Of a stretch of DNA of 64,000 bases, positions 6,741 to 61,464 are shown in pieces; position 1 is the stretch's first letter, and each line of letters starts with the position of its first letter. Below the pieces are notes generated by a model. The model searched no databases. It was not told where the DNA came from and worked only from the letters and a program-made list of their open reading frames with translations. A program made the position numbers and the translations under genes. The DNA comes from Methanomassiliicoccales archaeon. GTDB taxonomy: Archaea > Thermoplasmatota > Thermoplasmata > RBG-16-68-12 > SOIM01. The DNA lies in assembly GCA_030593885.1 (NCBI GenBank), contig JAUVGH010000003.1, forward strand, positions 3,011 through 67,010, in the 5' to 3' direction.

Positions 6741-6748
6741 GTTTAAAT
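6741..6748 (+). promoter_or_regulatory. Candidate TATA box (TTTAAATA) for the L40e gene
   Basis: A consensus-like TATA box immediately after the topA stop and 28-35 bp before the ATG at 6776. Confidence 0.5.
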
Positions 6749-6775
6749 AGCCGGTTCTCAATCGGATGGTGTTGA

Positions 6776-6925
6776 TATGGCTCGATTCCCTGAGGCAGAG
6801 GCAAGGTTGCTCCACAAGAAGATCTGCATGAAATGCAGTGCCAGGAACTCCATGAGGGCCACACAGTGCAGGAAATGCGGGAGCAAGGAGCTCAGGCCCA
6901 AGGCCAAAGAGGCCAGAAGACAGTA
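6776..6925 (+). CDS. rpl40e: 50S ribosomal protein L40e
   Basis: Hand translation gives [49 protein letters not shown] (49 aa), with the CxxC...CxxC zinc ribbon typical of L40e. It falls below the 60-aa cutoff of the supplied ORF track. Confidence 0.85.
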
Positions 6926-7003
6926 GAGCCAGCGTTTTCTCCGTGATTACGAAAGATTTTTAATAGACCGAGGGGCTACCCTTTTCCACACCCATTAAAC
7001 AAT

Positions 7004-9745
7004 ATGAACGGGGGATATGAAGGAGGACTAACTTTGAAAGTGGGCGAAAGGTTTAGGAAGGAATTCGTTCTGGCGATCGTCTTTCTGTTCGCGCTCAGCG
7101 GCTTCTTTGGGTTGATCGGCACAGCTGATGATGTTGAGCCGCGAGGAGGATTGTTCGGCGGAGAACTGAGGGTCGCCTTGCAGAGCGATATCGAGGAAAA
7201 TCCCATGGCTGCAAGTGATGATGCCAGCGTGCTGGCGGTAAGCCTGATGTACGATTCTCTCGCCAAGATAGATGAGGTCACACTTCTGCCGGAGCCGTGG
7301 GTGGCCATCAACTGGACGCTCACGTCCAACGATACTGTTGATGTGAACCTCAGGACTGATGTCGAGTGGCACGACTCGACGGATGACGCCCCACATTACG
7401 TGACGGCCTCGGATATCTGCAACTCGTATGCCGCAATGAAGACCTCCGCACACTGGGCAGATCTGCTCCAGAACGTGGTCTGCACTGCGGGAACCGGCAA
7501 GGTCACCTTCGATCTAACAACCGCCGACCAAGCAAGGGGAGTGTTCTTCAGCAAGGTGCTCACCATACCAATAGTCGGCCCCTCGAATCTCGGGTCCGGC
7601 CCGTACCAGTTCGGAACGAGAGGATCCCACACATTCTCCATAATGGATGACGTGGTCGAGGACAATGCAACCACAGGCCAGAAGCTCGTTATCGCGGGAG
7701 CCCACTACCACTACCTCGATCCCGACCCGAATCTGCTGAGGAACGGCGCGTTGATGCTGGGTAACAGCTATTCGGTCAATCCGTCCAACGGAACGGTCAC
7801 TTTCATCGGCACGACGCTCACCGCTGGAGATGATGTCACGGCCAACTACAGTGGCACCATCCAGTACACCACTATGGTCGCTTTTGAAAGGCATTTCTTC
7901 CGACGTCCATACCTGGACACGATCAATTACACCTTCTTTGCGGACACGGATTCAGCCATCAAGGCCATGATAGACAATGTGGTCGACTTCATCGGATTCG
8001 AGATACCATCCGGAGCCCAGAACGCACTGAGATGGGAAGGAGGCTCTGACGAGGCCACTCTCGGCCTCACACCCACCGTAAGCGTCCAAACGACCAACCC
8101 CAAGCCCACACTGCTATTCCTGGGAATGAACACACCGGTGAACCCGCTGAACGACACCCAGTTCAGAGAGGGACTGTCCATGTCCATCAAGAGGGAACTT
8201 GCGATGAGCTTTGAGGCGAGTACGACCATCGCGGACACCATGATACATCCATCCAACACCTACTGGCACGATCCCACATGCCCCAAGTTCAGGGTTCCAA
8301 AGGACGAGAACAACGAACCGATACTCACGGACATAATCAATCACTTCCAGGACAGCGGGTACCTGGACCCGGATGAGGACGGATACCTGGAGGACCCAAC
8401 GGGAGCTGACTTCAAGCTCAGCATCCTGGTGCCTCCGACAACCGAGGACCCTGCGAAGGCGTCAATCGGAGGGCAGGCGATCGGAGAGGTGTTCAATGAC
8501 GTGGGAGTGGAGACCGAGACGGTCTACCTACCGAACAGTGAAATCAGGAACAGGGTTGTCCTGGACAATTTCTCGCTCTATCTCTCCACCATGGATGTCG
8601 AGGTGGATCCGATATTCCTGTATGATCTGTTCCACAAGGACGGTTCCAGGAACGATGTCAACCTGGACGATCCTTTCCTCAACGACCTTCTGGACAACGT
8701 GAGACTGCAGGTGGACCAAAGCATCAGACAGGGTTACGTGAAGGAAGCGCTGTGTTACATCGCCGAGACCGCACCTGTCGGTACGATCCTGCATTACAAG
8801 GTCCTTGAATCCTTTGAGAAGATCAACTACGAAGGTTGGGTCCAGATGACCGGCGGGGTGAACAACTTCTGGTCATTCATAGGTGTGCATTACCAGCAGC
8901 TCGGACCCATGAAGGCTCAGATCATTCTGCTCGTGGATTCGATACAGGCAGGTGAGCTGATGGATGTCGTAGTTTCGGCCACGAACCTCGTCGATTCTCC
9001 GCTCGAGGGTGCGTGGATCAAAGTGACCAACGATTATGACTCCGAGATCGTCATCGATTATGCCGATGCATCTGGCCAGATAGTGTTCAATTGGACCGGG
9101 CCGGATGTCTCGCTTTCGACCACTGTCACTTTCACGGCCACTGTCAGGATATCTCAGTATGATGAAATGATAGCTGAGAACGCGATTACTGTCCACCCAT
9201 TGATCCAGAAGATGCTTGTGTCCATAGCTGCCCAAGAAAAGGTCATGCAATCGGGCGATGAGACCGTCATAGTCGTGAAGGTCGTCGATGATCTGACTGG
9301 CATAGACCTTCCCGATGTGATCCTGGTCCTCACCTTGTCAGGCGGTGCTGGAGGAGAACTGGGTGCCTACAGTGGCGTAACAGATCCTACTGGCACGTTC
9401 TCAACAACTTTCACAGGCGACGTGACCGCTTCTGTGCAATATGCTATCGAGGTGACACCTTCCAAGGATGGATATGAGCCGTCCACTTCGTCCCAGCTGA
9501 TAGCCTCGGTGATTGTCAATCCAGAGCCCCAAGATGAGCAGGACATTACAATGCTCTTGTTGATCATAATCCTCCTTGTGATTCTGATAGTACTGATCCT
9601 TGCACTGGCCGCCAGAAGGATGCGGGCCGGCAGGGGAGAGGGAGAGGAGTTCGAAGAAGAGCTGGAGGAAGAAGAGGAGCCTGAGGAAGAGATTGAGGAG
9701 GAAGAGGAGTTCGAAGAAGAAACCGAGGTCCTCGTGGAAGAATAG
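7004..9745 (+). CDS. Extracellular solute-binding protein family 5-like (peptide/nickel SBP) with Ig-like C-terminal region, TM anchor and polyglutamate tail
   Basis: N-terminal signal/anchor KEFVLAIVFLFALSGFFGL is followed by LRVALQSDIEENPMAASDDAS...SLMYDSL, which is typical of SBP_bac_5. The C-terminus has TM segment MLLLIIILLVILIVLILALAARR and then an EEFEEELEEEEEPEEE tail. An alternative start is TTG 7034, preceded by GGAGGA. Confidence 0.6.
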   Translation: MNGGYEGGLTLKVGERFRKEFVLAIVFLFALSGFFGLIGTADDVEPRGGLFGGELRVALQSDIEENPMAASDDASVLAVSLMYDSLAKIDEVTLLPEPWVAINWTLTSNDTVDVNLRTDVEWHDSTDDAPHYVTASDICNSYAAMKTSAHWADLLQNVVCTAGTGKVTFDLTTADQARGVFFSKVLTIPIVGPSNLGSGPYQFGTRGSHTFSIMDDVVEDNATTGQKLVIAGAHYHYLDPDPNLLRNGALMLGNSYSVNPSNGTVTFIGTTLTAGDDVTANYSGTIQYTTMVAFERHFFRRPYLDTINYTFFADTDSAIKAMIDNVVDFIGFEIPSGAQNALRWEGGSDEATLGLTPTVSVQTTNPKPTLLFLGMNTPVNPLNDTQFREGLSMSIKRELAMSFEASTTIADTMIHPSNTYWHDPTCPKFRVPKDENNEPILTDIINHFQDSGYLDPDEDGYLEDPTGADFKLSILVPPTTEDPAKASIGGQAIGEVFNDVGVETETVYLPNSEIRNRVVLDNFSLYLSTMDVEVDPIFLYDLFHKDGSRNDVNLDDPFLNDLLDNVRLQVDQSIRQGYVKEALCYIAETAPVGTILHYKVLESFEKINYEGWVQMTGGVNNFWSFIGVHYQQLGPMKAQIILLVDSIQAGELMDVVVSATNLVDSPLEGAWIKVTNDYDSEIVIDYADASGQIVFNWTGPDVSLSTTVTFTATVRISQYDEMIAENAITVHPLIQKMLVSIAAQEKVMQSGDETVIVVKVVDDLTGIDLPDVILVLTLSGGAGGELGAYSGVTDPTGTFSTTFTGDVTASVQYAIEVTPSKDGYEPSTSSQLIASVIVNPEPQDEQDITMLLLIIILLVILIVLILALAARRMRAGRGEGEEFEEELEEEEEPEEEIEEEEEFEEETEVLVEE

Positions 9746-47962: not shown

Positions 47963-48123
47963 TTTTGGAATGCTAGTCAGAGGTTTGAATCGCTTAGATT
48001 GATACATTGAACCATGGCAAAACTTAACAGTATTGTCCCTGATACTGGTACCGTCATCCTTAAGTGTTTCTGACCAGGATGACGGGCAGTTCTGGCATCG
48101 GACTGACGAAGGAGAGAGCTGGA

Positions 48124-51100
48124 ATGAGAAGGGCTAGCAGCAAAGCAATGAAGAGAATCGTTTCCTTGGGGGTGTCCTCCTGTCTTCTTTTCTCGACTCT
48201 TATGATCCTGGTCTCTTTTCATTCAGATCATGTCAAAGCATTGTCGCCCACTTGGGGAGATGCAATGGAAATGGGTCCTGGAGAGTGGAATAACTATTCC
48301 AACGGTGCGGGGACGGAGTGGCAGTTGGGAACGCCGGAGAACGTAGGGCCTAATTCAACCCATTCAGGAGTGAACGCATGGGGGACGAACATCGCCGAGA
48401 ACTACTCGACGGAAGCTCTGGCATATTTGGAATCACCCACATTCGATCTGGTTTTATCGACGAACACAGAACTCGTCTTCTGGCATTATTTGGAAACAGA
48501 GGACAATGTCACTAACACTTGGGACGGAGGGATCCTAGAGGTCTCGACCGACACCGGCATCACCTGGATTCAAATCGATGATCCTGTTGCGCCGAACCCA
48601 AATCCCTACTATGACGCTAACCTGGACAACGTGAGGAACAACCCATTGGGAGGGAAGAAGGCGTACTGTTACGACCGCTCCGGATGGGAGGAGGTTTCTG
48701 TCAATCTATCGCAGTTTGACGGTTCTTCTAATTTCATATTCAGGTTCGCCTTCGGAAGCGACACGACCGGTGGTTCTCCGGGATGGTATATCGATGACGT
48801 GCTCATCTCAGCGGATGCGAAGGAAGGAGTGATTGTTGAGCCGGATTACTCAAGGATCGACCTGGCTGGAACGGCTCACAAATTCAACCTGACGGTCAGA
48901 AATCTGCAGAAGATATCTGACGTGATCGACATAGTCCTCGAAGACGCCTACGGATGGCCAATGGAGCTCTACATGTGGGACGGGGTCTCGCCCCTTGCGG
49001 ATACGGGTGGTGCGCCTGGCATTCCGGACACTGGCTCCTTGTTCAAAGGGGCATCTAGAGATATAGTTCTTGAGGTCACGATACCTCCTGGGACTCCATA
49101 CGGCGTGAACAACCTGATACAAGTGAAAGGGGTGCCGTACTCGGGTCCAGCGGTCATTGATGCAGCATATGTTCATCTGTCAACGCCAACGCCTGACGTT
49201 TCCATCGTTGAATTCTCGGTTCCTGGTGTTCAGGTCTCTGGTGAAGAGGCGAATGTCACGGCTTCGATCAGGAACAACGGACGCTACAATCGGTCGTTCG
49301 ATGTAAGTCTGAAGATAAGCGGACCTGGGGAGTTGCAGTACGATCCCGTGAGAAGTATTGAGAACCTGAGTGCCGATGAGACGACAAGCGTTTACTGGAC
49401 TTTCATTCCGACGATTACGGGAGATTACGCAATAGAGGCAATGACTCTGTTGGACATAGATGTGGTTCCCGGGAACAACGTATCCTCCAGGCAGATGACG
49501 GTGATGACAAAGCTCTTTGAGGATACGATGGAGAACGGAGGCCCGGCATCCCAGGGAAAGTGGACGGCAGGGAGCCAGCCCCAGACCGCTTGGGAATTGG
49601 GAGTTCCATCCAACGTCGGACCGAGTTCGTGTCATTCAACGACCAAATGCTGGGGGACGAACCTCGACTCGGCCTACAGGAAGGCTGCGGACATCAGGTT
49701 GGAAACACCGAACATAGACCTTTCGGGATCGGACAGGGCAATCCTGAGATTCTCACATTTCTACCAGATCATGGGACCATGGATGGATGACGGTGGATTC
49801 GTTGAGGTAAGTAGTGATGGGGGTTCATCCTGGAGTTACATAGAACCAACTGGCGGTTATTCTGGGGGTGTTGATCTGAGCGCCCCCACGCCTCCTGGGC
49901 CAGGTGCTGATGCATATGCGGGCTCAAGTTCCGACTGGATGGTAGCCGAATTCGACCTCAACCCGTATTCCGGCGAGCAGATAATCATCGGTTTCCACCT
50001 CTGGACGGATCCATCCAACTACCAATCTGGATGGGCTGGATGGTACATAGACGATGTTCAAGTACTGCACATTCCAAAGGGGCCTGTTCTGATATTCACC
50101 GAGATCCAGGACAGCGGTCAGGAACTGATTGAGGTCTACAACAGCGGAAAGGTCCCGGACCACCTGACACATTACTCTATATCAACTGACGGAGGCATCA
50201 CGAACATAGGTGGTTCTTGGAGCACCGACCGGATAGACCCAGGCAAGTACGCTTTCTTCACTGCTTCGGGAGATGAGCTGAATGATGATGGCGAGATGCT
50301 CTACCTCCTGAACACTTCCTCCATCGAGATGAAGGATCAGATCGGCTATGGACAGAGAGGCCCGGTCCCCGACCCCATTTCAGAAGAGTCTTCCAGCAGA
50401 TTCTGGAACGGTAACGAATACGAGGAATACTGGACCAGATCGGCGAACACATCGTTCGGAGCACGCAATGACGTTCGACCAAGGAACGCTCAAACAGAGG
50501 TCGTGCTCAACGAGGTCCTCTTCAACCCGTCAACGCCTGGCGATGAGTTCGTAGAGATATTCTATTCCGGAAGCGGTTCGGTGAACCTGAAGAACTACAC
50601 TTTGGTCTGCGACAGCGCCCATACCATAGGTTCAGATGTCATCCTGGATGCCGCACACGATCATTACATAATGCTTCCCACGGACTACCCAGGCCTGTTC
50701 GCGGAAATGGATTCCGGGGGGGAGAATCTCTACTTGTACGATGCCACCGGTTCCTTCTTGGACATGGTGGGCTGGAGCTCCGGGAACGAAGTGGGCAAGT
50801 CGATGGCGCGAGTGCCTGAGGGTCTTGGATCCCGGGACGGGTATGATGACATCAGCTCCCAACAGGGAGGGTGGCGGTTCGGATCCGATCCCACAATGGC
50901 TCTCATCGGGCTAAGGCCAGACCAGTCGGGATACGGGGATCTGGGCGATGTCGTGAGCTATTCTCTTACGATTATGAACCAGCCAATAGATGACCTTATC
51001 ACTCTTACATACGTGACCGGACGCCCGTGGCAGATAGGTCTGTACACCGAGAACTGGTCCCCCCTTCCGGATACGAACTCCGATGGTCTACCAGATACCG

Positions 51101-53376
51101 GTCAGCTCCCTGCGTCATCATCCTACAACTTCAACGTGAAAGTGACCATACCGGCACAACCTCCGATTGGGAACGAGATGATGGCGGAGATCTACGCAAG
51201 CTCCACGGTCAACAAGGCAAGGGATTTCGCGAGCATAGTGACAAAGACAAGACCTCATCTGGAACCCATGAAGACGGCCGATCCGGAAGAGATATACCTC
51301 GAAGGGGTGGGAACCAATGAGTTCACTGAGATCACCCTGGAAGTGTTCGGGGGAGGTTACATGCTCACCGAAAGGCAGCCCCAGGACACCATCTTCGTGA
51401 TGGACAGTTCGGGAAGCATGCAAGACAGCGACCCCCTCAACCTGAGACTGGATGCATCCAAGATGTATGTTGACAACATGAGCATTCCTGACAGGGGAGC
51501 AGTGGTCGATTTCGATCATGTCGCCAATCTGGCTCCGATCGGCAATGGGGACCATCTGAGCAGTGATTATACCAGAATCAAACAGAACATAGACACAATC
51601 GATTCCAACGGGGCCACGGATGTTGGCCTTGGATTGAAGGTCGCCAATGAGGAACTCATCGCCAACGGGGATCCCACTCATCTTTGGATCGAGATCCTAA
51701 TGTCTGACGCGAACCAGCCGGACACTTACTACCCTGAGACTGCATTACAGATACAGAACGCAACTGATGCTGGCATCATCATCTTTGCAGTAGGACTAGG
51801 GGAATGGGTGAACGAGCCTTTGCTCAGAGAGATCGCGGAGCGCACGGGGGGAGAGTACTATCACGCCGAGGACCCGACGGCCCTTCAAGTGATATTCAGC
51901 CAGATAGAGATGATCATATTCGACATAGCTGGACGAGATGGAGACCTGAGCGATTCTGACCGCATGATAAGGGACGTGATACCGCCGTACATCCATCTGG
52001 AGTGGGGTTCTTTCTCGATCTATCCCGATGTCATTTACAGTACAATGGAAGGGACCTGCCTTGAATGGGAGGTCGCCAGGATCAAGGTGGGTGAGAACTG
52101 GAAGGTCTCCTACAAGGTCAGCAGTTCCCAACTGGGTTGGGTGCCGGTTGGTGTCTATCCGGATGCGAGGGTCAGCTACATCAAGTGGAACAATCATTAC
52201 GTGACCCACCCGTTCCCTGAGGTCTTGGTCCACGTCATCCTTCCGCCAACCGACCCGACTGTTATAGGGCCTCCAAAGGACCTTAGAACTTCGGTCACGG
52301 GAAACACGGACATTCGCCTGGACTGGACCCCTCCAGATGATCCTATGGTCAGCCACTACCTGATATATCGTTCGGAGGGGCAGAGGGGCTTCGATTTCAC
52401 AAACCCGATTCATGATACTTCAAACGATGTTGATCCAAGACGAACCGATTGGCTGGACGCCGGAGCAGCAGACGTCGGAGCCAAGAGGGAGTACTACTAC
52501 ACTGTAAGGGCTGTGGATAATGGGGGTTCTGTGAGCAACACCAGCAACACGGCAGGCAAGTGGACGAAAACATTCGAAGAGGGTCTGAACACCTTCTCTC
52601 TTCCACTGGAACCGTACCGCCCCCTGAATGTGAGTGAACTGGGGAACCAGATACCCAACGCCGAGTTCATCAGGAGTGTCGGGAAGGACGGGGGCTGGAA
52701 CACTCATATCGTGGGCACAAAGGGTGTGGTAACTGATGAGGAAGCACTTATCGGAAAGGGCTATGAGATATCGGTGTCCGCCCAGACCACGTACACGTTC
52801 GTGGGATTCCCGGGATCGATGATACGTTTCCATGAGGGGTTTGGGGATACCATAGCATTCAGAAGAAGCCTGGTGGCAAATGTGGAGAATTCGGACATAA
52901 GAGTCATCTGGCAGCCTCTCCCCAGTGTGTCTAAATATCATGTATACAGGTCCGCGAGCAGAGACGGCTTGTTTGAAGAGACGCTCCAACCCTTAGCCAT
53001 AGTTTCAACTTCTCTCAGTTATTATGTAGATATTGGAGTTGTCTCATCCGGAACTGAGCATTATTACTGGGTCGTCCCGGTCGATTCGGCGGGAAATGAG
53101 GGGAGCAGTACTTACAGTATCGGAGTGTGGATCGGGATCTATCAGAAAGGCTCTGACACCATCTCATCTCCATTGAAGTTGAGGGTGCAGATTTGGATCG
53201 ACGGTCTTTGCGAATTGAATGAGGATGTGGTCGGGATGGCTTACTTGATAAAGGGCGTTTGGAAGTTCCACTCAAGGGAGATGCCAGCTTCGGTCTACAA
53301 CACAGCTTTCGAGCAAGCATTGGGGTACCAAATATCGAACGAGAATGCAGTGCAATTGATCTTCATAGGTTACTAG
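48124..53376 (+). CDS. Giant secreted multidomain protein (2x MAM/beta-sandwich-like modules, 2x lamin-tail domains, vWA with MIDAS, FN3-like domains)
   Basis: ATG 48124 is preceded by AGGAGAG, and the signal/anchor is MKRIVSLGVSSCLLFSTLMILV. LTD motifs are LIFTEIQDSGQELIEVYNSG and VLNEVLFNPSTPGDEFVEIFYSG, and the vWA MIDAS is IFVMDSSGSM...GATDVG. FN3-like regions include DIRLDWTPPDDPMVSHYLIYRS. Confidence 0.75.
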   Translation: MRRASSKAMKRIVSLGVSSCLLFSTLMILVSFHSDHVKALSPTWGDAMEMGPGEWNNYSNGAGTEWQLGTPENVGPNSTHSGVNAWGTNIAENYSTEALAYLESPTFDLVLSTNTELVFWHYLETEDNVTNTWDGGILEVSTDTGITWIQIDDPVAPNPNPYYDANLDNVRNNPLGGKKAYCYDRSGWEEVSVNLSQFDGSSNFIFRFAFGSDTTGGSPGWYIDDVLISADAKEGVIVEPDYSRIDLAGTAHKFNLTVRNLQKISDVIDIVLEDAYGWPMELYMWDGVSPLADTGGAPGIPDTGSLFKGASRDIVLEVTIPPGTPYGVNNLIQVKGVPYSGPAVIDAAYVHLSTPTPDVSIVEFSVPGVQVSGEEANVTASIRNNGRYNRSFDVSLKISGPGELQYDPVRSIENLSADETTSVYWTFIPTITGDYAIEAMTLLDIDVVPGNNVSSRQMTVMTKLFEDTMENGGPASQGKWTAGSQPQTAWELGVPSNVGPSSCHSTTKCWGTNLDSAYRKAADIRLETPNIDLSGSDRAILRFSHFYQIMGPWMDDGGFVEVSSDGGSSWSYIEPTGGYSGGVDLSAPTPPGPGADAYAGSSSDWMVAEFDLNPYSGEQIIIGFHLWTDPSNYQSGWAGWYIDDVQVLHIPKGPVLIFTEIQDSGQELIEVYNSGKVPDHLTHYSISTDGGITNIGGSWSTDRIDPGKYAFFTASGDELNDDGEMLYLLNTSSIEMKDQIGYGQRGPVPDPISEESSSRFWNGNEYEEYWTRSANTSFGARNDVRPRNAQTEVVLNEVLFNPSTPGDEFVEIFYSGSGSVNLKNYTLVCDSAHTIGSDVILDAAHDHYIMLPTDYPGLFAEMDSGGENLYLYDATGSFLDMVGWSSGNEVGKSMARVPEGLGSRDGYDDISSQQGGWRFGSDPTMALIGLRPDQSGYGDLGDVVSYSLTIMNQPIDDLITLTYVTGRPWQIGLYTENWSPLPDTNSDGLPDTGQLPASSSYNFNVKVTIPAQPPIGNEMMAEIYASSTVNKARDFASIVTKTRPHLEPMKTADPEEIYLEGVGTNEFTEITLEVFGGGYMLTERQPQDTIFVMDSSGSMQDSDPLNLRLDASKMYVDNMSIPDRGAVVDFDHVANLAPIGNGDHLSSDYTRIKQNIDTIDSNGATDVGLGLKVANEELIANGDPTHLWIEILMSDANQPDTYYPETALQIQNATDAGIIIFAVGLGEWVNEPLLREIAERTGGEYYHAEDPTALQVIFSQIEMIIFDIAGRDGDLSDSDRMIRDVIPPYIHLEWGSFSIYPDVIYSTMEGTCLEWEVARIKVGENWKVSYKVSSSQLGWVPVGVYPDARVSYIKWNNHYVTHPFPEVLVHVILPPTDPTVIGPPKDLRTSVTGNTDIRLDWTPPDDPMVSHYLIYRSEGQRGFDFTNPIHDTSNDVDPRRTDWLDAGAADVGAKREYYYTVRAVDNGGSVSNTSNTAGKWTKTFEEGLNTFSLPLEPYRPLNVSELGNQIPNAEFIRSVGKDGGWNTHIVGTKGVVTDEEALIGKGYEISVSAQTTYTFVGFPGSMIRFHEGFGDTIAFRRSLVANVENSDIRVIWQPLPSVSKYHVYRSASRDGLFEETLQPLAIVSTSLSYYVDIGVVSSGTEHYYWVVPVDSAGNEGSSTYSIGVWIGIYQKGSDTISSPLKLRVQIWIDGLCELNEDVVGMAYLIKGVWKFHSREMPASVYNTAFEQALGYQISNENAVQLIFIGY

Positions 53377-54390: not shown

Positions 54391-55383
54391 TTAGATCGGC
54401 TTCCCTGATTGACCTGGCCCGGTTTCGGTCCCGAGGATCTCCTCATACATTAACCGAAAGACGTCCTCGTTCACAACGCTCAGGTCGTATCGCAGAAGCA
54501 TATTGGAGGCCTCCCGCAGCAGGAGATTCAGATCATCGATCGCACCATTGGCCACCCAAGAGTAGTTCTCATCAATCTCAACGATTCTGACACCGGCTTC
54601 CACAAGAGGCTTGCCCACAGCGAAATCCTCTGGACGGTTCTTCATCTCCTCGACAAAACGGCTGTCGCCCAATACGAAGAACTGGGCAATCATCTTGGCT
54701 ATGATAACATAGTAAGCATAACGGAAGTGCAGTTCCTTTGCCCCTACTTCAACGGACTCCATGCCCATTCCTCTGCAAAGTTCGTCAAAATTCGGATACA
54801 CATTACGGTACTCTGTGGTCCACGCCTCAAACTGGGATTCGAAATCCTCTGAGGATTCAGCGATTGATCGAAGTAGCATATAGCATATGCGATAGATGGG
54901 TGATCCCTTCCTGAAAACCTCCACCAAGTCGGCCGGAATCACTGACTTCGGCTCTCCGGGACGCATAGGGGGGACGCTTTCGAGAATCCTCTCACTGAGC
55001 TCTTGATCTGTCCAATTCCTTCCTGTCTGAAAGTTGTGGTACTCTGTGACTCCATCACTGCTGGTTAGGAAGAACCTCCACAGAACGCCGTCGGTTGCCA
55101 CACCGATATTGATGTTGTTCTTGCCTTTGGTGTGTGCTTCAATCTGGGTCCTGGCATCGTCCAATTCGCCCCTGAGTGAAATCCTGGACTCGATTACTAA
55201 GGGCTCTTCGAGCACAGTGCCAGCTCTCGCCCATCCCTCACGCAACTGGAGCTCCGTCGCCTTCCCGGGTTGAAGCTCAAGGCCGAACAAATCGTCAAAG
55301 AGGTCTATGAGCCATGCGTTTATGTCGACAAGCTGAGGGTCTTCTGAGCGGATATCGAAAATGCGCTTAACGAACTCGGCCAC
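54391..55383 (-). CDS. Restriction-enzyme N-terminal-like module (HSDR_N / type IIG-like nuclease-derived domain + helical linker) lacking any methyltransferase domain
   Basis: PLVIESR...NINIGVATDGVLWRFF resembles the (E-x-K)...TNG..W.ly core of type I/IIG N-termini. The C-terminal DVFRLMYEEILG resembles the motif that normally precedes the MTase domain, but the ORF stops 12 codons later. GTG start. Confidence 0.35.
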   Translation of the reverse strand: MAEFVKRIFDIRSEDPQLVDINAWLIDLFDDLFGLELQPGKATELQLREGWARAGTVLEEPLVIESRISLRGELDDARTQIEAHTKGKNNINIGVATDGVLWRFFLTSSDGVTEYHNFQTGRNWTDQELSERILESVPPMRPGEPKSVIPADLVEVFRKGSPIYRICYMLLRSIAESSEDFESQFEAWTTEYRNVYPNFDELCRGMGMESVEVGAKELHFRYAYYVIIAKMIAQFFVLGDSRFVEEMKNRPEDFAVGKPLVEAGVRIVEIDENYSWVANGAIDDLNLLLREASNMLLRYDLSVVNEDVFRLMYEEILGTETGPGQSGKPI

Positions 55384-55510: not shown

Positions 55511-56395
55511 ATGGCTGTGAAGAAGAAGATAGTTCTTCTCGGTGATAGTGCCGTCGGGAAGACCAGTTTGATGCGCCGCTATGTGTTCGACCAGTTTGAG
55601 GGATCCTACGTCACGACAATCGGGAGCAAAGTGACGAGAAAGGAGATGACGATTATGAAAGATGACAGGGAGGTTGAGCTCAATCTCATTATCCACGACA
55701 TACTCGGAAGAGTGGGATACATGGCGCTACATGCGAGGACCTTTGCAGGTGCGCAGGGCGCCATTCTTGTCTCTGACCTGACTCGAAGGGAGACACTCAA
55801 AACACTGGAACTATATTGGATTCCATTGCTCTTCCAGGTGGTTGAGAATGTTCCGTTGGTTTTCACCTGTAATAAGTCAGACCTCACCGATGAGATATCG
55901 TTCAAACAAAAGGATATCAAGGACATAGCCTCAAGGTACAACGTTGGGATAGAGAATTCATTGAGCAATGGCCTCAAACCAAGTTACATGACAAGCGCCA
56001 AAACTGGCAAGAACGTGGAGAAAGCGTTTGAGAGTCTGGGCCATCTGATGATGTCGGAGAAAGCTCCAAGGGATCCCATAAAGGAACTGCACGAGAAGCT
56101 CATAGCTGAGGGCATTTACCGGCAATCCGATAGAAAGACTTTGATCGGTGCGGCGGATGCCTTGATCGTGGATTTCTGCGAGGGTCTGGATGATGATAGA
56201 GTGGCCCTCCTCTTACTCCGTCAGGAATTTACCAGGGCGGGCGTGGACGTGAGAAGCCCTTCGAAGGAAGGACTGTTGAAGGCTGTGGAGTATCTGGCAG
56301 AGGCTGAGTCCGAGTTCAAAGATGAGGGTCAGGTGCTGAAGGACAAAGAGAGAAGATTTCAGTTGGTAAAGAAAGCGAGAACGATCACTAGATGA
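55511..56395 (+). CDS. Rab/Ras-like small GTPase with ~114-aa C-terminal extension
   Basis: G1 is GDSAVGKT, switch I YVTTIG, G3 DILG, G4 NKSD and G5 TSAKTGKNVEKAF. ATG 55511 was chosen; the track ORF begins at TTG 55478. Confidence 0.8.
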   Translation: MAVKKKIVLLGDSAVGKTSLMRRYVFDQFEGSYVTTIGSKVTRKEMTIMKDDREVELNLIIHDILGRVGYMALHARTFAGAQGAILVSDLTRRETLKTLELYWIPLLFQVVENVPLVFTCNKSDLTDEISFKQKDIKDIASRYNVGIENSLSNGLKPSYMTSAKTGKNVEKAFESLGHLMMSEKAPRDPIKELHEKLIAEGIYRQSDRKTLIGAADALIVDFCEGLDDDRVALLLLRQEFTRAGVDVRSPSKEGLLKAVEYLAEAESEFKDEGQVLKDKERRFQLVKKARTITR

Positions 56396-56413
56396 TGGGG
56401 GAGTGAGGGACAA

Positions 56414-59400
56414 ATGGCAGAACTGGAATTCCAACCAGAGCTCATTGGACGAGAGAGCGAATTGGAGGTGCTGGAAGGACATCTGGTGAGAGCATCTGAA
56501 GGGAAGGGAGCAACTGTCTTCATTTCTGGAGAGGCTGGAATCGGCAAGACGCGATTGATGAATGAGCTGAAGCAAATCGCAGAGACCAAGGGTTTCCGTG
56601 TGCTGTCAGGTCACAGCTTGTATGAATCCATGACACCTTACATGCCATTCCGAGAGGCTTTGATGTCGGGGGGATTAGAATACCTTTTTGCAGATAAGTC
56701 CCCGAGGGTCGAGGCAGTCTATTTGGTGACTGATGTTGGATTGCTGGTAAAAGAGGTTGTAAGGAAAGGTACTCATTTGGACGCAGACATATTCTCGTCC
56801 ACCTTGACCACTGTGGCCGACTTCGTCAAAGAATCTCTATCGGTTTTCAGGGGAGATGAGGCGCGCGATAGTCTGAACAGAATCGGGTACGGCGATTACG
56901 TCATTCTCATCGAAAGTGAAGGAGGCAAGAACCTGGTAGTTATTCTCACAGGCAGAGAGAACGAATTCCTGATAGATGATATGAGGGGAGTGCTCAAGGA
57001 AGTCGAGAGCAAGTACGGAGATGTGCTCAAAGATTGGGATGGTGATGAGGGGGGAGTGGAGAGCATAGACGATCTGCTGAAGACGCTCATGACCTCGGGG
57101 AAGTACGACGGAACATATTATGGAGAGGCGAATCCGGAGGCGAGAAGGAATCTGTTGATGGAAAACGTCACCCTGGGCCTGAGCAGACTATCCCATACGG
57201 TGCCGACGCTCTTGTGCATAGATGATCTTCAGTGGGCGGACCCCTCAACGCTTGCCTTGATGCATTATCTTGCAAGGAACACAGTGACATCTGGAGTATT
57301 CGTCCTGGGAGCATATCGACCTGAGGACCTGGTGACTAAAGGGGGGGAGGGACATCCTCTCAATGACAGGATTCGGTTGATGAGCCGAGAGGGACTGCAT
57401 GAAGGAATGGAACTGGGAAGATTGCCTTGGGAAACCATCTCCTCCTTCCTTCCGTCTCTGCTGGGCGATGTCGATTTCGATGAGGAATTTGAGCGAAGAA
57501 TTCACAAGGAAACAGAAGGAAACCCTTTGTTCATCATTGAACTGGCAAGACTGATGGTTGAAGAAGGGATCATAGCAAAGGACAACGGAACGTGGAAACT
57601 TGGGACGAGTATGGACGAGGTAAACGTGCCATCCAAGATACATGACGTAATCCTAAGGAAATTGGACAGATTGGGCACAGAGAAGAGAAGGATTCTGGAC
57701 TACGCCTCGGTCATAGGAGAAGTATTCAGGTCCGAGATACTTGCAGCATCTCTGGAACTAGAGAGAATCAGATTGCTGGAGCTATTGCGCAATCTGGAAC
57801 AGACTCACAAACTGGTTCATTCCCAGAATGAGGGATACAGATTCGACCACTCAAAGGTCAAAGAAGTGCTATATGGCAAGATTCCTGCAGAACTCAAAAG
57901 AGAATATCATTCCGTGATAGCTGACTCCATCAAATCGCTGAACAGAGATAGCCTGGATGAAGTTGTAGAGGACTTGGCATTCCATTACTACCGTGGTAGG
58001 AACAAGGAAGAGGCACTTCGTTATCTTATCAAAGCGGCAGACAAATGCAAGAAAGAGTACTCAAACGAAGAGGCGACACGATTCTACAATGAGGCTCTGG
58101 AACTGGAAGAGGATGCGCAGAAGAGATTGGAAGTATTCGAGGGTTTGGGAGACATTTACAGATTAATCGGAGACTATGAGAAGAGCGTAGAGTCCTACGA
58201 GAGCGCATTGGAATTGATCGAAGAGAAGAGAAAGAAGGCTGAGGTCAAGACCAGGATTGGGGCCGTCTACACGAGAAAGGGTGAGTATGGCAACGCAATA
58301 AAGGTCTGCACCGAGGCATGGAACTCAGTTGAAGGTGAGGATTGCGAGGAGGAGGCCTTTGCCCTCAACTACATCGGCGTCGTGCATTACGAAAGAGGAG
58401 AATACGACAGAGCCCTCAAGTCCTACGAGAAGAGCCTTGAGATAAGGGAGAAGAGGGGGGACCAGAAGGGCATTGCAGGATCCTTCAACAACATCGGCAA
58501 TGTGCATTGGAGAATGGGAGAATACGACAGGGCCCTCAAGTCCTACGAGAGGAGCCTTGAGTTGAGTGAGAAGACCGGCGACCAGGAGTTTACCGCAATT
58601 CACCTCGGGAACATTGGCGTTGTGCATTTCGATAGAGGGGAATACGATAGGGCCCTCGAGTACTACGAGAGGAGCCTTGAGATAAGGGAGGAGATCGGCG
58701 ACCAGGAGGGGATTGCACTCACCCTCAACAGCTTCGGCAATGTGCATACTGAGAGAGGAGAATACGATAGGGCCCTCGAGTACTACGAGAGGAGTCTGGG
58801 GATATCGGAGAAGATCGGCGACCAGCACAGGATTGCAAGACCCCTCAACAACGTCGGCAGTGTGCATTGGAGCATGGGAGAATACGACAGGGCCCTCGAG
58901 TACTACGAGAGGAGTCTGGAGATTAATGAGAAGATTGGCGACCAGGACGGGATTGCAACCAACCTCAACGGCATCGGCAATGTGCATTGGAGCATGGGAG
59001 AATACGACAGGGCCCTCGGGTACCACGAGAGGAGTCTGGGGATATCGGAGAAGATTGGCGACAGGGAAGGAGCCACTGAGTCATACTGTCGCATTGCAGA
59101 AGTCTATTTTGAAAAGAGAAATCTGAGAAGAGCACTGGATTTCTGCAATAGAGCATTTGACCTGTCCAGAGAGGTTGGTTTGAAGGAGAGCGAGGCAGCA
59201 TCAAGGAGAATCTTCGGAAAGATCCATAGAGAGCGAGAAAAGTGGAAGGAATCGATTGAAGAATTCGAGGAGAGCATCAGGATATTCGAGGAGATTGGAA
59301 TGAAGAAGGGGTTAGGAGACTCCCACTACGAGTTCGGTCTCATGTATAAGGACAAAGGTGATACGGGCAAAGCAAAGGAGTATCTGGACAAGGCAGCTGC

Positions 59401-59470
59401 GATATTCGAAGGGATGCACTTGGATCTGCAGTTGGATGAGGTGAGGAAAGCCCTAGATGGACTGACCTGA
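56414..59470 (+). CDS. STAND (AAA_16-type) ATPase with internal Roadblock/LC7-like insertion and C-terminal TPR array
   Basis: The N-terminus GRESELEVLEGHL, Walker A GEAGIGKT and Walker B LLCIDDLQWAD follow the AAA_16 pattern. The EGNPLFIIEL helical arm follows, then at least 9 TPR units, six of them nearly identical (GEYDRAL..Y.RSL.I.EKIGDQ). The gene starts 18 bp after the GTPase stop. Confidence 0.8.
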   Translation: MAELEFQPELIGRESELEVLEGHLVRASEGKGATVFISGEAGIGKTRLMNELKQIAETKGFRVLSGHSLYESMTPYMPFREALMSGGLEYLFADKSPRVEAVYLVTDVGLLVKEVVRKGTHLDADIFSSTLTTVADFVKESLSVFRGDEARDSLNRIGYGDYVILIESEGGKNLVVILTGRENEFLIDDMRGVLKEVESKYGDVLKDWDGDEGGVESIDDLLKTLMTSGKYDGTYYGEANPEARRNLLMENVTLGLSRLSHTVPTLLCIDDLQWADPSTLALMHYLARNTVTSGVFVLGAYRPEDLVTKGGEGHPLNDRIRLMSREGLHEGMELGRLPWETISSFLPSLLGDVDFDEEFERRIHKETEGNPLFIIELARLMVEEGIIAKDNGTWKLGTSMDEVNVPSKIHDVILRKLDRLGTEKRRILDYASVIGEVFRSEILAASLELERIRLLELLRNLEQTHKLVHSQNEGYRFDHSKVKEVLYGKIPAELKREYHSVIADSIKSLNRDSLDEVVEDLAFHYYRGRNKEEALRYLIKAADKCKKEYSNEEATRFYNEALELEEDAQKRLEVFEGLGDIYRLIGDYEKSVESYESALELIEEKRKKAEVKTRIGAVYTRKGEYGNAIKVCTEAWNSVEGEDCEEEAFALNYIGVVHYERGEYDRALKSYEKSLEIREKRGDQKGIAGSFNNIGNVHWRMGEYDRALKSYERSLELSEKTGDQEFTAIHLGNIGVVHFDRGEYDRALEYYERSLEIREEIGDQEGIALTLNSFGNVHTERGEYDRALEYYERSLGISEKIGDQHRIARPLNNVGSVHWSMGEYDRALEYYERSLEINEKIGDQDGIATNLNGIGNVHWSMGEYDRALGYHERSLGISEKIGDREGATESYCRIAEVYFEKRNLRRALDFCNRAFDLSREVGLKESEAASRRIFGKIHREREKWKESIEEFEESIRIFEEIGMKKGLGDSHYEFGLMYKDKGDTGKAKEYLDKAAAIFEGMHLDLQLDEVRKALDGLT
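58397..59116 (+). repeat. Intragenic tandem repeat, six units of exactly 120 bp (40-aa TPR units)
   Basis: GGAGAATACGACAG(G/A)GCCCTC recurs, with minor variants, at 58397, 58517, 58637, 58757, 58877 and 58997, with long stretches of nucleotide identity. Confidence 0.85.
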
Positions 59471-59552: not shown

Positions 59553-60323
59553 TCATTCGAAGCCAAGAAGACAAGCCATATCATAACCTGACTGCGTCAG
59601 GTTCACCTTCCTCCGCCTGCCCAACTTCTCAATCTCAACGTATCCCACATCCACCAGTGGTTTCAAAATGGTCTTGGTGAGTTTGACCGTCAACCTTGTC
59701 TTCTCCGCCCGAAGTGTCATCTTTGTCACTTTGGTGTCGAACCCTGGGACTCCATTCCTTCTCAGTACGTCGAAGAGCTCCTGATAGGATTGGGACTTCT
59801 GTGGTGATGATGCAAGACTCCCAAGAACGCTGGTTCCCGCCTCGGAAGGTAACGAGAGCCCGAAACTGGGAACCATGATCGGATTCCCGAGCATTCCCCT
59901 GCTCAGACCATGCTTCTTCAGACCTTTCTCGGTTCTCATGTGCTCCTCGGGTCTGACATAGTATGCGTATCCCCGATCTCTCAAGTGTGCCATGGACGCA
60001 AGCATCCCTGCAACCGCGGCCAATTTTCCAGCAGAGGAGATGTTAACGTAGACCCGGTTCCCCTTCTTGACTTCCTCTTCGACCAATCTGGTCGTTTCCC
60101 GCATGAGACCTTTGAGATCGCTCTCGGAGTCAACTTTGGTGTGGACGACTTCGACCCCTTCACCCTTCAGTTCTTCTGACACGCGATGGAAGAAATGTCG
60201 TTGCATATCATGAGCATCGGGATTGCAGAGGAGATGCGCCCTGTGGGCCTTCATAGCCCGCACTGGAAGGACAGCCCTGTCCAACTCCCAGCCGAGTGGA
60301 ATGACGTGGACTAAGCGTTCCAT
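59553..60323 (-). CDS. Csa3/CARF-like Rossmann domain + C-terminal winged-helix regulator (DUF6293/HFX_2341-like)
   Basis: HVIPLGWELDRAVLPV, RAHLLCNP and VYVNISSAGKLAAVAGMLA mirror the CARF/Csa3 N-domain strand-helix pattern. The C-terminal ILKPLVDVGYVEIEKLGRRRKVNLTQSG looks like a wHTH. Confidence 0.45.
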   Translation of the reverse strand: MERLVHVIPLGWELDRAVLPVRAMKAHRAHLLCNPDAHDMQRHFFHRVSEELKGEGVEVVHTKVDSESDLKGLMRETTRLVEEEVKKGNRVYVNISSAGKLAAVAGMLASMAHLRDRGYAYYVRPEEHMRTEKGLKKHGLSRGMLGNPIMVPSFGLSLPSEAGTSVLGSLASSPQKSQSYQELFDVLRRNGVPGFDTKVTKMTLRAEKTRLTVKLTKTILKPLVDVGYVEIEKLGRRRKVNLTQSGYDMACLLGFE

Positions 60324-60447
60324 GCAGGGTAGAATGACGCAGGATGATTAAGATGTTTTCTATGTTTACTATCATGTTTTAGCATTAGACCAGTTTCTGG
60401 TGAAGCTCCAAATAACCTCGGCTGGACTTCAATATCGGGTTGATACC

Positions 60448-61464
60448 ATGAAATTGTGGAAAGTATTCCTCAGTTTGGTTACCGTGAGCCTGCTTTTGAC
60501 TGTCTCCTTGAGCATTCCCATGAATGCCTTGGTAGTGGGTGCGGCGCCACCGGACAAGTGCGATCCCTGGCCCGAGTGCAAAGATGGCGGGGGTGGCGAG
60601 GAGCCTTCAGCAGACCCAGCTATTGCATTCACAAGGAAAAAAGGTCTCATTTCAATACTCACGGTGATGAACGCTGATGGCACAAATCGGGTCGATTTAG
60701 ATTCCGAGCGTTATCTTCGAAACCCAACGTGGTCGCCAGATGGGTCTTCTATCGCCTATCTAAAAGGCGTGCCGCACAGTCTCTACCGTATCGATGTAGC
60801 GGTGGTCAATGGTACAGTGCAGGGAAGCGAGCCAACGCTTCTGTATGAAGACATCCAAATGGACCCCGCATGGTCACCTTTGGGCGATAAGATTGCATTC
60901 ATACAGAAGACCTACGACCCCTCTTTGGGTTATGACCGTCCAAGACTAGTCCAGACGATTTCACTTGGCGACGGTTCTGTTGAAACCTTGTATACGGCAG
61001 ATGAAGGACATTTTTTGCTGGACCCGACATGGAGCCCGGACGCCACTAGGATCGCGTTTGTAGGCTGGGCACGGATACTGGATGTCGGAAGATCGTATAT
61101 CGATATCCTAACAATTGGATCGGGAGAGCCTCCTGAGAGAGTCTATGAGTATGGATCGGTTGGCATAAGGGATTTGGATTGGTCGCGTACGCCGGACAAG
61201 CTGGCGTTTCAGTTATGGCCTTCCCTCGATGGATCCGAAGACAGTGCGATCTATACTCTTGACATAACGCAGAGCGATCCGACACCGCAGTTCGTTTCCG
61301 GAGAGAATTGCCGTTATCCTTCTTGGTCGCCCGACGATACTCAGTTGGTGTTTGACCGACCCGTCAGTCAAGTAAAGATCTTTACATATGACTTTGCGAC
61401 AGGGGAGACCACGGAGCTCGGGAAAGGTCGGGACCCAGACTGGAGCAGGCACGTAAGCAGTTAG
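60448..61464 (+). CDS. Secreted TolB-like beta-propeller protein (PD40/WD40-like repeats)
   Basis: Signal MKLWKVFLSLVTVSLLLTVSLS. The repeats are PTWSPDGSSIAY, PAWSPLGDKIAF, PTWSPDATRIAF, LDWSRTPDKLAF and PSWSPDDTQLVF. Confidence 0.7.
   Translation: MKLWKVFLSLVTVSLLLTVSLSIPMNALVVGAAPPDKCDPWPECKDGGGGEEPSADPAIAFTRKKGLISILTVMNADGTNRVDLDSERYLRNPTWSPDGSSIAYLKGVPHSLYRIDVAVVNGTVQGSEPTLLYEDIQMDPAWSPLGDKIAFIQKTYDPSLGYDRPRLVQTISLGDGSVETLYTADEGHFLLDPTWSPDATRIAFVGWARILDVGRSYIDILTIGSGEPPERVYEYGSVGIRDLDWSRTPDKLAFQLWPSLDGSEDSAIYTLDITQSDPTPQFVSGENCRYPSWSPDDTQLVFDRPVSQVKIFTYDFATGETTELGKGRDPDWSRHVSS

Follow-up and report, generated by a model that had tools for sequence, protein, structure and literature searches.

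A Ras-like small GTPase and a STAND ATPase, encoded 18 bp apart in the window (the whole 64,000-nucleotide stretch of Methanomassiliicoccales DNA analysed here), belong to a gene pair found repeatedly, in both gene orders, in metagenome-assembled genomes of the Thermoplasmata and Methanomassiliicoccales. The ATP-binding domain of the STAND protein contains an insert that, judged from its model, belongs to the Roadblock/longin fold class, and this insert is homologous to domains that accompany Ras-like GTPases in bacteria. We lean slightly towards the view that the two proteins are a cognate signalling pair, in which the STAND protein would present the GTPase with its cognate regulator domain.

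The GTPase

Both open reading frames lie where the original prediction had placed them. The GTPase gene and the spacer that follows it have these features:

55511..56395, + strand: Ras-superfamily small GTPase gene, 294 aa; G domain at about residues 1-180, then a C-terminal helical domain
55541..55564, + strand: G1/P-loop GDSAVGKT, residues 11-18 (family alignment)
55697..55711, + strand: G3 DILGR, residues 63-67, with Arg67 at the catalytic-Gln position of Ras and Rab
55871..55882, + strand: G4 NKSD, residues 121-124 (family alignment)
55994..56002, + strand: G5 SAK, residues 162-164 (family alignment)
56063..56392, + strand: family-specific C-terminal domain, about residues 185-294, conserved across the family and all-alpha
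56396..56413, + strand: intergenic spacer, 18 bp, Shine-Dalgarno-like GGGGGAGTGAGGG

The gene runs from the ATG at 55511, downstream of a Shine-Dalgarno-like GGAGGGG, to the stop at 56395, and its homologues share the same start Met. Its best Pfam match is Ras (7.4e-27), followed by Roc (4.4e-20); the top PDB sequence matches are a Thorarchaeota Rab and Rab7, and a homologue search returned more than 6,000 matches, the majority of them 290-aa proteins of the Thermoplasmata. The G motifs had been described as Rab-like. All five are present (G2 being T36), but G3 is not Rab-like, with Arg67 aligned opposite the Gln of Thor-Rab and Rab7 and an Arg in 121 of 121 family members (WDxxGR). Because this Arg is invariant, the GTPase should be unable to use the usual catalytic Gln, and so it probably depends on a partner for GTP hydrolysis or for its read-out. 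A bacterial GTPase of the Rup type is 39% identical to the window protein and scores 113 bits by BLASTP, against 72 bits for the best PDB Rab by phmmer, the two scores coming from different programs. We take the window GTPase to be a Ras-like switch of the prokaryotic Rup type.

The C-terminal domain is modelled by AF2 as six helices (pLDDT 81) with no fold match in the PDB (best E 1.1), and neither Pfam nor PDB sequence searches matched it; no sensor domain is recognisable in the GTPase. The C-terminal domain occurs only in GTPases retrieved along with STAND partners, and GTPases of 33-42% identity from the metagenome search lack it, their alignments covering the G domain only.

The two genes share one reading frame, with no additional stop in the spacer, and the short spacer with its Shine-Dalgarno-like site would be consistent with co-transcription.

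The STAND ATPase and its insert

The downstream gene had been read as an AAA_16/STAND ATPase with a P-loop, a Walker B motif, a helical arm and a long TPR array, and the profile matches and motifs bear this out:

56414..59470, + strand: STAND gene (AAA_16, MalT-type ATPase), 1018 aa; AAA_16 1.8e-21, TPR_12 3.6e-88
56528..56551, + strand: Walker A GEAGIGKT, residues 39-46 (homologue alignment)
56663..57151, + strand: insert, residues 84-246, separating Walker A from Walker B; 163 aa long, where insert-less relatives have 60-70 aa
56705-57031, + strand: Roadblock/longin-like core of the insert, about residues 98-206, then two short helices
57209..57241, + strand: Walker B region LLCIDDLQWAD, residues 266-276; D271, W274 and D276 invariant
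57308..57328, + strand: GAYRPED, residues 299-305, a sensor-1-like Arg302 motif; Y301, R302, P303 and E304 invariant
57404..58093, + strand: helical arm, residues 331-560, matching TIGR03903 and LuxR-type AAA_16 arms; conserved in the alignment
57515-57532, + strand: EGNPLF (GxP-type) motif inside the helical arm
58094..59467, + strand: TPR array, residues 561-1018, with eight Pfam TPR_12 matches

A protein in the public collection (P0250) is identical to the window STAND protein. The AAA_16 match is split in the whole protein, covering residues 9-101 and a second stretch, and becomes a single stretch (residues 9-291, profile positions 1-160) when residues 1-329 are scanned alone. The helical arm presumably includes a winged-helix region. 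The NTPase domain begins at residue 9, and we found no effector domain at either end of the protein. The TPR array, which contains a 120-bp tandem repeat in 5.8 copies (58362-59062, TRF), is the most divergent part, at 26-47% identity to homologues against 44-69% for the N-terminal parts (insert 44-59%, ATPase core 47-69%); the helical arm is 36-58% identical. The insert is conserved to the same degree as the ATPase core, and it is under purifying selection.

The insert follows strand 2 and precedes the Walker B strand, and makes the NTPase domain about 95-100 aa longer than in the closest insert-less relatives. Its AF2 model is of moderate confidence (pLDDT 73 overall, 80-90 in the core) and has the topology beta-beta-alpha-beta-beta-beta-alpha. 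When this model was compared with the PDB by Foldseek, the top 50 matches were all longin-domain, longin-like or Roadblock structures (probability 1.00, E about 1e-4 to 1e-3), the former including SNARE longins, AP sigma and mu subunits, zeta-COP and a TRAPP subunit, and the latter LAMTOR, LC7 and the bacterial Roadblock protein 3kye. At the sequence level, the window insert itself has no Pfam match and the insert profile has no PDB sequence match; Robl_LC7 is the commonest weak Pfam match among homologues (8 of 36, below the Pfam threshold), and two truncated homologues are annotated by JGI as Roadblock/LC7/MglB. The original prediction of a Roadblock/LC7-like segment between the Walker motifs therefore holds for the fold class, but the modelled topology resembles that of longin domains no less than that of Roadblock domains.

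Clustering at 50% identity gives 5,503 clusters of the inserted domain, which is mobile. Roadblock and longin domains serve as dimerisation modules, and the tandem copies of this domain seen in non-STAND proteins (two in P0282, three in P0241) agree with its acting as a dimer. No Arg, Gln or Asn that might act in catalysis in trans is conserved between the domain in archaea and its bacterial counterpart.

Linkage of the two genes

The co-conservation that had been predicted for the pair is evident from both sides. A GTPase of the family adjoins the STAND gene at 13 of 23 loci (GTDB representatives with sufficient flanking sequence), and a STAND gene adjoins the GTPase at about 10 of the 15-17 metagenome loci retrieved with the GTPase. 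The genes occur as GTPase-STAND, STAND-GTPase and divergently, and the linkage has therefore outlived rearrangement. Distance matrices of the paired proteins are correlated (Mantel r 0.82 overall and 0.46 within the close clade, p <= 6e-4), which may partly mirror species phylogeny. Three insert-less relatives were without a GTPase neighbour. Adjacency is frequent, not obligatory: some 40-45% of the STAND genes with an insert have no GTPase gene beside them, and roughly a third of the GTPases are without a neighbouring STAND gene.

Bacterial loci provide independent support for the partnership, as there the domain lies next to Gln-less GTPases in proteins that have no STAND or TPR parts. With the insert profile, hhalign finds a bacterial membrane protein that is the partner of a Ras-like GTPase (probability 99, E 9e-18). 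At five of the ten short-GTPase loci with sufficient upstream DNA, the gene immediately upstream of a Gln-less Ras-like GTPase, in one case the 39%-identical protein mentioned above, encodes an insert-domain protein (the match at L095 being weak, E 2e-4). Downstream of the pair are output genes, a histidine kinase at L088 and a sigma-54 AAA+ activator at L090. These loci fit the Group 1 Rup neighbourhood described by Wuichet and Sogaard-Andersen in 2015, who left the partner domain as one of "unknown function" and took histidine kinase and sigma-54-type proteins as the outputs (PMC4316618). We assign that partner domain to the Roadblock/longin class.

Possible roles of the pair

We only infer the contact between GTPase and STAND protein, the direction of signalling, the dimerisation, and the sensed ligand and output. 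In the reading we favour, the divergent TPR array would bind a ligand and the STAND protein would oligomerise ATP-dependently, bringing together the Roadblock/longin-like domains, one per protomer, of adjacent subunits. The joined domains would form the dimeric platform typical of this fold, and the platform would bind the GTPase and shift its nucleotide state as a GAP or GEF. The family-specific C-terminal domain of the GTPase may be an additional docking or output element.

The same linkage and fold evidence would also suit signalling in the opposite direction, with the GTP-bound GTPase docking on the insert to license or block ATP-dependent STAND assembly. Since the STAND protein lacks a separate effector domain, its TPR array could then be the output scaffold, and in the bacterial loci the GTPase-domain pair does lie upstream of the output genes. 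We consider this direction rather unlikely, however, as the TPR array diverges fastest and has recently amplified repeats, a pattern more typical of a ligand sensor in STAND proteins, and as the GTPase has no sensor of its own that we can recognise, its C-terminal fold matching nothing in the PDB.

An antiviral system of the Avs/NLR type appears improbable. In such a system a viral protein would be recognised by the TPR array, oligomerisation of the STAND protein would follow, and the toxic or abortive effector would be the GTPase or its C-terminal domain. The STAND-plus-TPR architecture, the divergent and repeat-expanded array and the several paralogues per genome would suit it, as would the CARF-wHTH gene 3' of the unit within the window, the toxin-antitoxin genes adjoining one homologous locus (L002) and the composition of the locus, which is AT3-richer as predicted, if mildly (GC3 0.60-0.61 against a window mean of 0.668 +/- 0.063). 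The "defence-flavoured" context itself proved weak, however: apart from a marginal SngB match (E 0.005) at the P-loop region, PADLOC matches are confined to the TPR repeats, no relatives were found on viral contigs, and no neighbour other than the GTPase or STAND partner is conserved across homologous loci, where housekeeping genes are in the majority. The absence of an effector domain, the signalling outputs that accompany the homologous bacterial modules, and a 2026 survey of about 90 defence-associated STAND families without mention of any GTPase also count against it, and a defence role is not supported.

Least probable, in our estimation, is that the insert serves this STAND clade only for self-association or as a structural element and makes no contact with the GTPase, the linkage being due to another contact (e.g. 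between the C-terminal domain and the TPR array) or to co-regulation; the dimerising habit of the fold, the restriction of the C-terminal domain to GTPases retrieved with STAND partners and the many unaccompanied insert-bearing STAND genes would allow it, but three insert-less relatives lack the GTPase neighbour, and domain and GTPase recur together in all contexts, including bacterial proteins with no STAND or TPR parts.

Comparison with known systems

The closest likeness is to Group 1 Rup, a comparison drawn from the published description of these systems. In both, the G3 motif of the Ras-like GTPase lacks the catalytic Gln and the GTPase gene adjoins one for an insert-domain protein; our bacterial loci encode, as published, a coiled-coil protein, the protein with the domain and an output, for example a histidine kinase. 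The archaeal partner domain, however, is inside the ATP-binding domain of a STAND protein with a TPR array, whereas that of Rup is in a membrane protein; the archaeal unit lacks the coiled-coil protein and any histidine kinase or diguanylate cyclase output, and its GTPase has the extra C-terminal helical domain and the invariant G3 Arg.

As in MglA-MglB, Ragulator-Rag, Mon1-Ccz1, TRAPP and FLCN-FNIP, a Roadblock/longin-fold domain is coupled, here genomically, to a Ras-like GTPase. In MglA-MglB and other Roadblock platforms the domain is a free dimeric protein, whereas the archaeal one occurs once, within an ATPase; the archaeal GTPase is also not MglA-like, and the insert falls below the Pfam Robl_LC7 threshold. 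The STAND protein resembles those of the MalT/AfsR type in its above-threshold AAA_16 match, Walker A, Walker B, sensor-like Arg, GNPLF motif, helical arm and C-terminal TPR array, but has no DNA-binding or enzymatic output domain, carries the insert of about 100 aa and is linked to a small-GTPase gene. Avs and bacterial NLR-like proteins are likewise STAND NTPases whose repeat sensor is divergent, but the archaeal protein has no effector domain, convincing PADLOC NTPase match, defence-island context or viral copies. Roco proteins (Roc-COR, e.g. LRRK2) likewise join a Ras-like G domain to regulatory partners rich in repeats, Roc is the second-best Pfam match of our GTPase, and the Roc domain of LRRK2 has an Arg at the position of Ras Gln61; the archaeal GTPase, however, has no COR domain and its G domain is a separate polypeptide. 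The two-NTPase architecture had not been recognised as a described one, and we likewise found no paper on a GTPase paired with a STAND protein bearing a Roadblock/longin insert. The pair thus looks like an undescribed, putative wiring of an ATP switch to a GTP switch.

The GTPase

Two adjacent, co-oriented genes of the window are considered here, and both were found exactly where the original prediction had placed them.

55511-56395, + strand: GTPase gene (ATG to stop), ORF of 294 aa
56414-59470, + strand: STAND ATPase gene, ORF of 1018 aa, 18 bp after the GTPase gene

Neither product has a name in public annotation; homologues of the STAND protein are listed there as 'AAA family ATPase', 'tetratricopeptide repeat protein' or 'BREX/DUF2791 P-loop protein'. 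The assigned GTPase start is supported by homologues, which share an initial Met-x-Val-Lys-Lys-Lys, and by an upstream GGAGGGG site.

The first protein is a Ras-superfamily small GTPase, with a Pfam Ras match (7.4e-27, 94.3 bits against a cut-off of 21.6), a further match to Roc (4.4e-20) and all five G motifs: GDSAVGKT (G1), T36 (G2), DxxG (G3), NKSD (G4) and SAK (G5). In overall sequence similarity to solved structures, a Thorarchaeota Rab and Rab7 are best, the top PDB Rab scoring 72 bits in phmmer. The G motifs had been described as Rab-like, which does not hold for G3. In this family the motif reads WDxxGRxGY (DILGR in the window), with arginine at the position of the Ras/Rab catalytic glutamine in 121 of 121 members, and the eukaryotic-type WDTAGQE is absent. 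The prenylatable C-terminal cysteine that follows a hypervariable tail in Rabs is absent as well, the terminus being ...KKARTITR, and a conserved helical domain of about 110 aa replaces the tail.

This C-terminal domain is predicted to be all-helical (pLDDT 81 in an AlphaFold2 model), with no fold match (best Foldseek E 1.1), no Pfam match and no PDB sequence match. The more distant GTPases of the metagenome scan lack it, and their alignment covers the G domain only. A profile search of the database with the domain returned only 25 short proteins. Both of the two that were checked lie at contig ends, so these two are truncated GTPases and offer no evidence of a free-standing version.

The STAND ATPase and its insert

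The second protein matches AAA_16 (1.8e-21, 77.8 bits against a cut-off of 32.6), split between residues 9-101 and a second stretch; a scan restricted to residues 1-329 gives a single match that covers residues 9-291 and profile positions 1-160. Walker A (GEAGIGKT, 39-46), Walker B (LLCIDDLQWAD, 266-276), GAYRPED and EGNPLF are conserved or invariant among the aligned relatives. With its P-loop, Walker A, hhhhDD-type Walker B and sensor-like arginine, the protein belongs to the AAA_16/MalT clade of STAND NTPases. The arm, in which EGNPLF is the GxP motif, matches TIGR03903 and is followed by the repeats, eight TPR_12 matches (3.6e-88) and a TPR_MalT match; the arm presumably includes a winged helix. 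The earlier reading of this gene as an AAA_16 P-loop followed by a helical arm and a TPR array is thus supported.

A 120-bp tandem repeat at 58362-59062 (5.8 copies, 78% matches) corresponds to near-identical 40-aa TPR units (GEYDRALEYYERSL...). The repeat accounts for the protein's excess of about 100 aa over most homologues and suggests a recent expansion of the sensor array. The 18-bp spacer between the genes contains a Shine-Dalgarno-like GGGGGAGTGAGGG. Across 56393-56416, the STAND start is in frame with the TGA stop of the GTPase gene, no further stop intervenes, and read-through of the TGA would yield a fused GTPase-STAND protein. This is probably chance, since the spacing is not kept in homologous loci, where the gaps are 72-131 nt.

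In an alignment with 13 relatives, residues 84-246, between the Walker motifs, make up 163 residues where the closest insert-less relatives (alpha/beta-hydrolase fusions and one TPR protein) have 60-70, a net insertion of about 95-100 aa. Pfam gave no relevant match to the window's own insert at E <= 10, Roadblock/LC7/MglB (PF03259) included, and against PDB sequences both phmmer and a profile hmmsearch gave chance-level matches only. Among 36 homologous inserts, Robl_LC7 is the commonest weak Pfam match (8 of 36, best E 0.0083, below threshold), with one weak match each to Fuz_longin_1 and Sybindin. Two truncated homologues carry the JGI label 'Roadblock/LC7/MglB family'.

The fold assignment comes from AlphaFold2 modelling with the 36-sequence alignment as input (mean pLDDT 73, core 80-90). 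The elements of the model run beta-beta-alpha-beta-beta-beta-alpha and then two short helices, the order of the Roadblock/longin alpha-beta-alpha sandwich with its five-stranded antiparallel sheet and flanking helices. Foldseek returned 40 PDB matches at E <= 0.001, and every one of the best 50 matches is a longin or longin-like domain or a Roadblock protein, with target-normalised TM of 0.42-0.74 for most. The longin-type matches include Sec22b, VAMP7, Ykt6, AP sigma and mu, zeta-COP and a TRAPP subunit; LAMTOR/MP1-p14, dynein LC7 and Streptomyces 3kye are of the Roadblock type. The topology is slightly more longin-like, because the N-terminal helix is absent and C-terminal helices are present. 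Judged by this model, the insert belongs to the Roadblock/longin class, and the suggestion of a Roadblock-like segment, which had been framed so that it could fail, passed at the level of fold. Within the STAND protein, identity is 44-59% in the insert, 47-69% in the catalytic core and 26-47% in the TPR array. In the Thermoplasmata, then, a domain of this class is embedded in a STAND ATPase and is as conserved as the catalytic core.

Linkage of the two genes

Both protein families are large and come mostly from Thermoplasmata and Methanomassiliicoccales MAGs, with a few records labelled Asgard. We scanned one genome per GTDB species with a narrow alignment of the insert and obtained 26 loci; apart from a 1.2-kb contig binned as Planctomycetota, they all come from Thermoplasmata-type MAGs. 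In 13 of the 23 loci with enough flank (the scan loci and L002, a related locus), the STAND gene has a GTPase of this family beside it; in the other 10 the neighbours are unrelated and variable. The converse metagenome scan with the GTPase alignment gave 70 loci, and the STAND gene adjoins about 10 of the 15-17 C-terminal-domain GTPases with enough flank, these adjacency counts resting on pattern-limited scans and short contigs. The 27 pairs collected show three arrangements: STAND first (the majority), GTPase first (as in the window) and divergent. Between the paired proteins, distance matrices are correlated (Mantel r 0.82 overall and 0.46 in the close clade, p <= 6e-4), with a contribution from species history. 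None of the other window neighbours is conserved in any related locus, and no GTPase lies next to the insert-less relatives in a small control sample (0 of 3). The predicted co-conservation of the two genes is therefore upheld.

There are several copies per genome, with three of the proteins on one 4.2-Mb contig. Thermoplasmata MAG contig CP070751.1 has two loci, one of which (L013, 2404-9436) is arranged as follows.

L013, start of the array: ORF of 106 aa
2934-5747: STAND gene
5749-8559: second STAND gene, in tandem
8561-9436: GTPase gene

Both STAND genes of this array carry the insert, and gaps of only 1-2 nt separate neighbours among the last three genes. The 106-aa ORF matches only the GTPase C-terminal domain, and may be a remnant or a free-standing copy of it. 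Elsewhere, JAOAJK010000008.1 (locus L017) has three clustered AAA_16 STAND paralogues, at least one with the insert and one without it (the alignment skips query residues 83-239). In locus L029 a single STAND gene is followed by two consecutive family GTPase genes; counted from the N-terminal STAND match, these match 1,054 and 2,073 nt downstream. Some homologues of both proteins (P0012, P0070, P0073, P0074 and P0235) bear NCBI labels of Hermodarchaeota, Hodarchaeales or Heimdallarchaeota, yet share 56-62% identity with the Thermoplasmata-type proteins of the window. They could be genuine Asgard copies, the result of horizontal transfer or mis-binned; no locus found among GTDB representatives bears an Asgard label.

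The insert domain in other proteins

A profile search with the insert against 1.84 billion cluster representatives (50% identity) returned 5,503 proteins at E <= 0.001, 3,644 of them at E <= 1e-10. It is a mobile domain of a large family with at least four architectures. Besides the STAND proteins, these include a membrane protein with two tandem copies (P0282), which has no GTPase gene within its 6.4-kb contig, and giant CARDB...DUF5915 proteins, in which two or three copies occur. Examples of the latter (P0241, P0301, P0251, P0265, P0272 and P0245) are 1,100-2,400 aa long and end in DUF5915, most have a weak CARDB match, and they have no obvious STAND or GTPase link. Some insert-bearing STANDs have extra N-terminal beta-helix, fn3 or Ig-like domains. 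The examples P0256 (1897 aa) and P0247 (1285 aa), taken jointly, have NosD/beta-helix plus fn3 or Ig/cadherin-like domains ahead of the insert-bearing AAA_16-TPR region, and are either membrane-spanning receptor-like STANDs or gene-call fusions.

In bacterial metagenome loci, the gene for a protein bearing the domain lies directly upstream of one for a short Ras-like GTPase, again without the G3 glutamine (DLAGS, DIEGA). This is the case in 5 of the 10 short-GTPase loci with enough upstream DNA, with a weak match in one of them (L095, E 2e-4). Comparison of the insert profile with the bacterial partner protein by hhalign gave a probability of 99 and E 9e-18. The GTPase of bacterial locus L089 shares 39% identity with the window GTPase and scores 113 bits in BLASTP, a different program from the phmmer used for the 72-bit PDB Rab score. 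A coiled-coil protein and an output protein are further products of the bacterial loci; the output is a histidine kinase in L088, and in L090 it is a sigma-54 AAA+ activator with an OmpA-type protein after it. The L090 operon (3689-8312) reads, in order:

coiled-coil protein
domain-bearing protein
Ras-like GTPase without the G3 glutamine
sigma-54-dependent AAA+ activator
OmpA-type protein

By published description, these loci correspond to the neighbourhood of Group 1 Rup, a prokaryotic Ras-superfamily GTPase group, in which a GTPase without the G3 glutamine is found with a 'domain of unknown function', a coiled-coil protein and a histidine kinase or diguanylate cyclase as output (PMC4316618, Wuichet and Sogaard-Andersen). 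The combination of a Gln-less Ras-like GTPase with a domain of the Roadblock/longin class is thus seen repeatedly, across two domains of life and in two protein contexts that are unrelated to each other.

How the two switches may be coupled

We infer that the GTPase would dock on the insert and be regulated there. The Roadblock/longin fold normally works as a dimer, and the tandem copies in other architectures, with the gene linkage, give indirect support to a dimeric, GTPase-binding platform. Since the STAND protein has one copy and other architectures have tandem copies, ATP-driven oligomerisation could assemble the platform. A ligand bound by the TPR array would then drive STAND oligomerisation with ATP, the platform would be assembled, and the GTPase would be gated. 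We identified no conserved catalytic residue that could act in trans, so GAP and GEF roles cannot be told apart. It is also possible that the direction is reversed and the GTPase licenses STAND assembly. Returning to a platform that gates the GTPase, we tentatively propose, while holding it somewhat doubtful as a whole, that the inserts form a large, so far unannotated Roadblock/longin-like family, with thousands of clusters in bacteria and archaea, of long-sought cognate regulators of Gln-less Rup-type GTPases, and that the Thermoplasmata STAND protein is an ATP-driven, ligand-gated oligomeric GAP/GEF platform.

A role of the pair in defence, as in Avs and other antiviral STAND systems, had been considered from the setting of the genes, which includes the following.

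48064-53376, + strand: predicted secreted or surface protein of 1770 aa, GC3 0.62
54391-55383, - strand: ORF of 330 aa, divergent from the GTPase gene, no Pfam, NCBIfam or PADLOC match
59553-60323, - strand: HFX_2341-like CARF and winged-helix protein (PADLOC CARF3 1.3e-56), just downstream of the STAND gene
60400-61464: PD40 beta-propeller protein, GC3 0.54

The only defence-like hints are the CARF-wHTH gene and toxin-antitoxin genes beside one homologous locus (L002), and we consider this explanation weak, as no domain besides AAA_16, insert, arm and TPR array was found in the STAND protein, and no effector domain (nuclease, protease, Sir2, TIR or similar), and PADLOC matched only its TPR repeats, plus a marginal SngB match at the P-loop (E 0.005). 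The neighbours change between loci and are mostly housekeeping genes, with no defence-island context, and no GTPase relatives were found on viral contigs. The GC3 of the pair is no more than about one standard deviation under the mean of the window. Of the context originally described, the AT3 enrichment is real but mild, and the defence flavour is weak.

The 1770-aa and PD40 proteins mark a region, between about 48 and 61.5 kb, in which GC3 is lower. The CARF-wHTH protein is possibly a cyclic-oligoadenylate-responsive regulator; the ORFs inspected, those between 48 kb and the end of the window, include no cas genes. Candidates for a third component (the 330-aa divergent gene, a GNAT gene and the CARF-wHTH gene) were set aside, being absent from all related loci; the 330-aa ORF occurs elsewhere only in the identical Logan contig L001.

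Comparison with known systems

If the proposed platform is real, it would be the first NOD-like switch directly controlling a small-GTPase switch. The pairing itself would bring the uncharacterised Rup branch under the rule that small GTPases have Roadblock/longin domains as partners. It would also give a fold to the 'domain of unknown function' of the published Rup neighbourhoods, as matched by description. A GTPase-partner domain inside the ATP-binding domain of a STAND protein is an undescribed coupling of two nucleotide switches. The original prediction had not recognised the architecture as described, and we likewise found neither a STAND protein with a Roadblock/longin insert nor its GTPase pairing in the literature on Asgard GTPase and Roadblock proteins, the Rup survey, work on archaeal Rabs, the 2026 STAND defence survey or the Asgard structural catalogue. 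The pair would offer a model for the control of a GTPase without a catalytic glutamine. Both proteins are soluble and of a size that allows in vitro reconstitution.

We rate the pair as a combination of known kinds, Roadblock/longin-GTPase pairs and STAND switches, and not as a new category. Like Group 1 Rup, the window GTPase has a G3 without the catalytic glutamine. Unlike the Group 1 neighbourhoods, the window and the other archaeal loci have no coiled-coil protein and no histidine kinase or diguanylate cyclase output; the partner-type domain, compared by published description, is present but embedded in a STAND ATPase. The bacterial L090 operon offers a parallel to this archaeal coupling, in that a Rup-type module there adjoins an AAA+ enhancer-binding protein.
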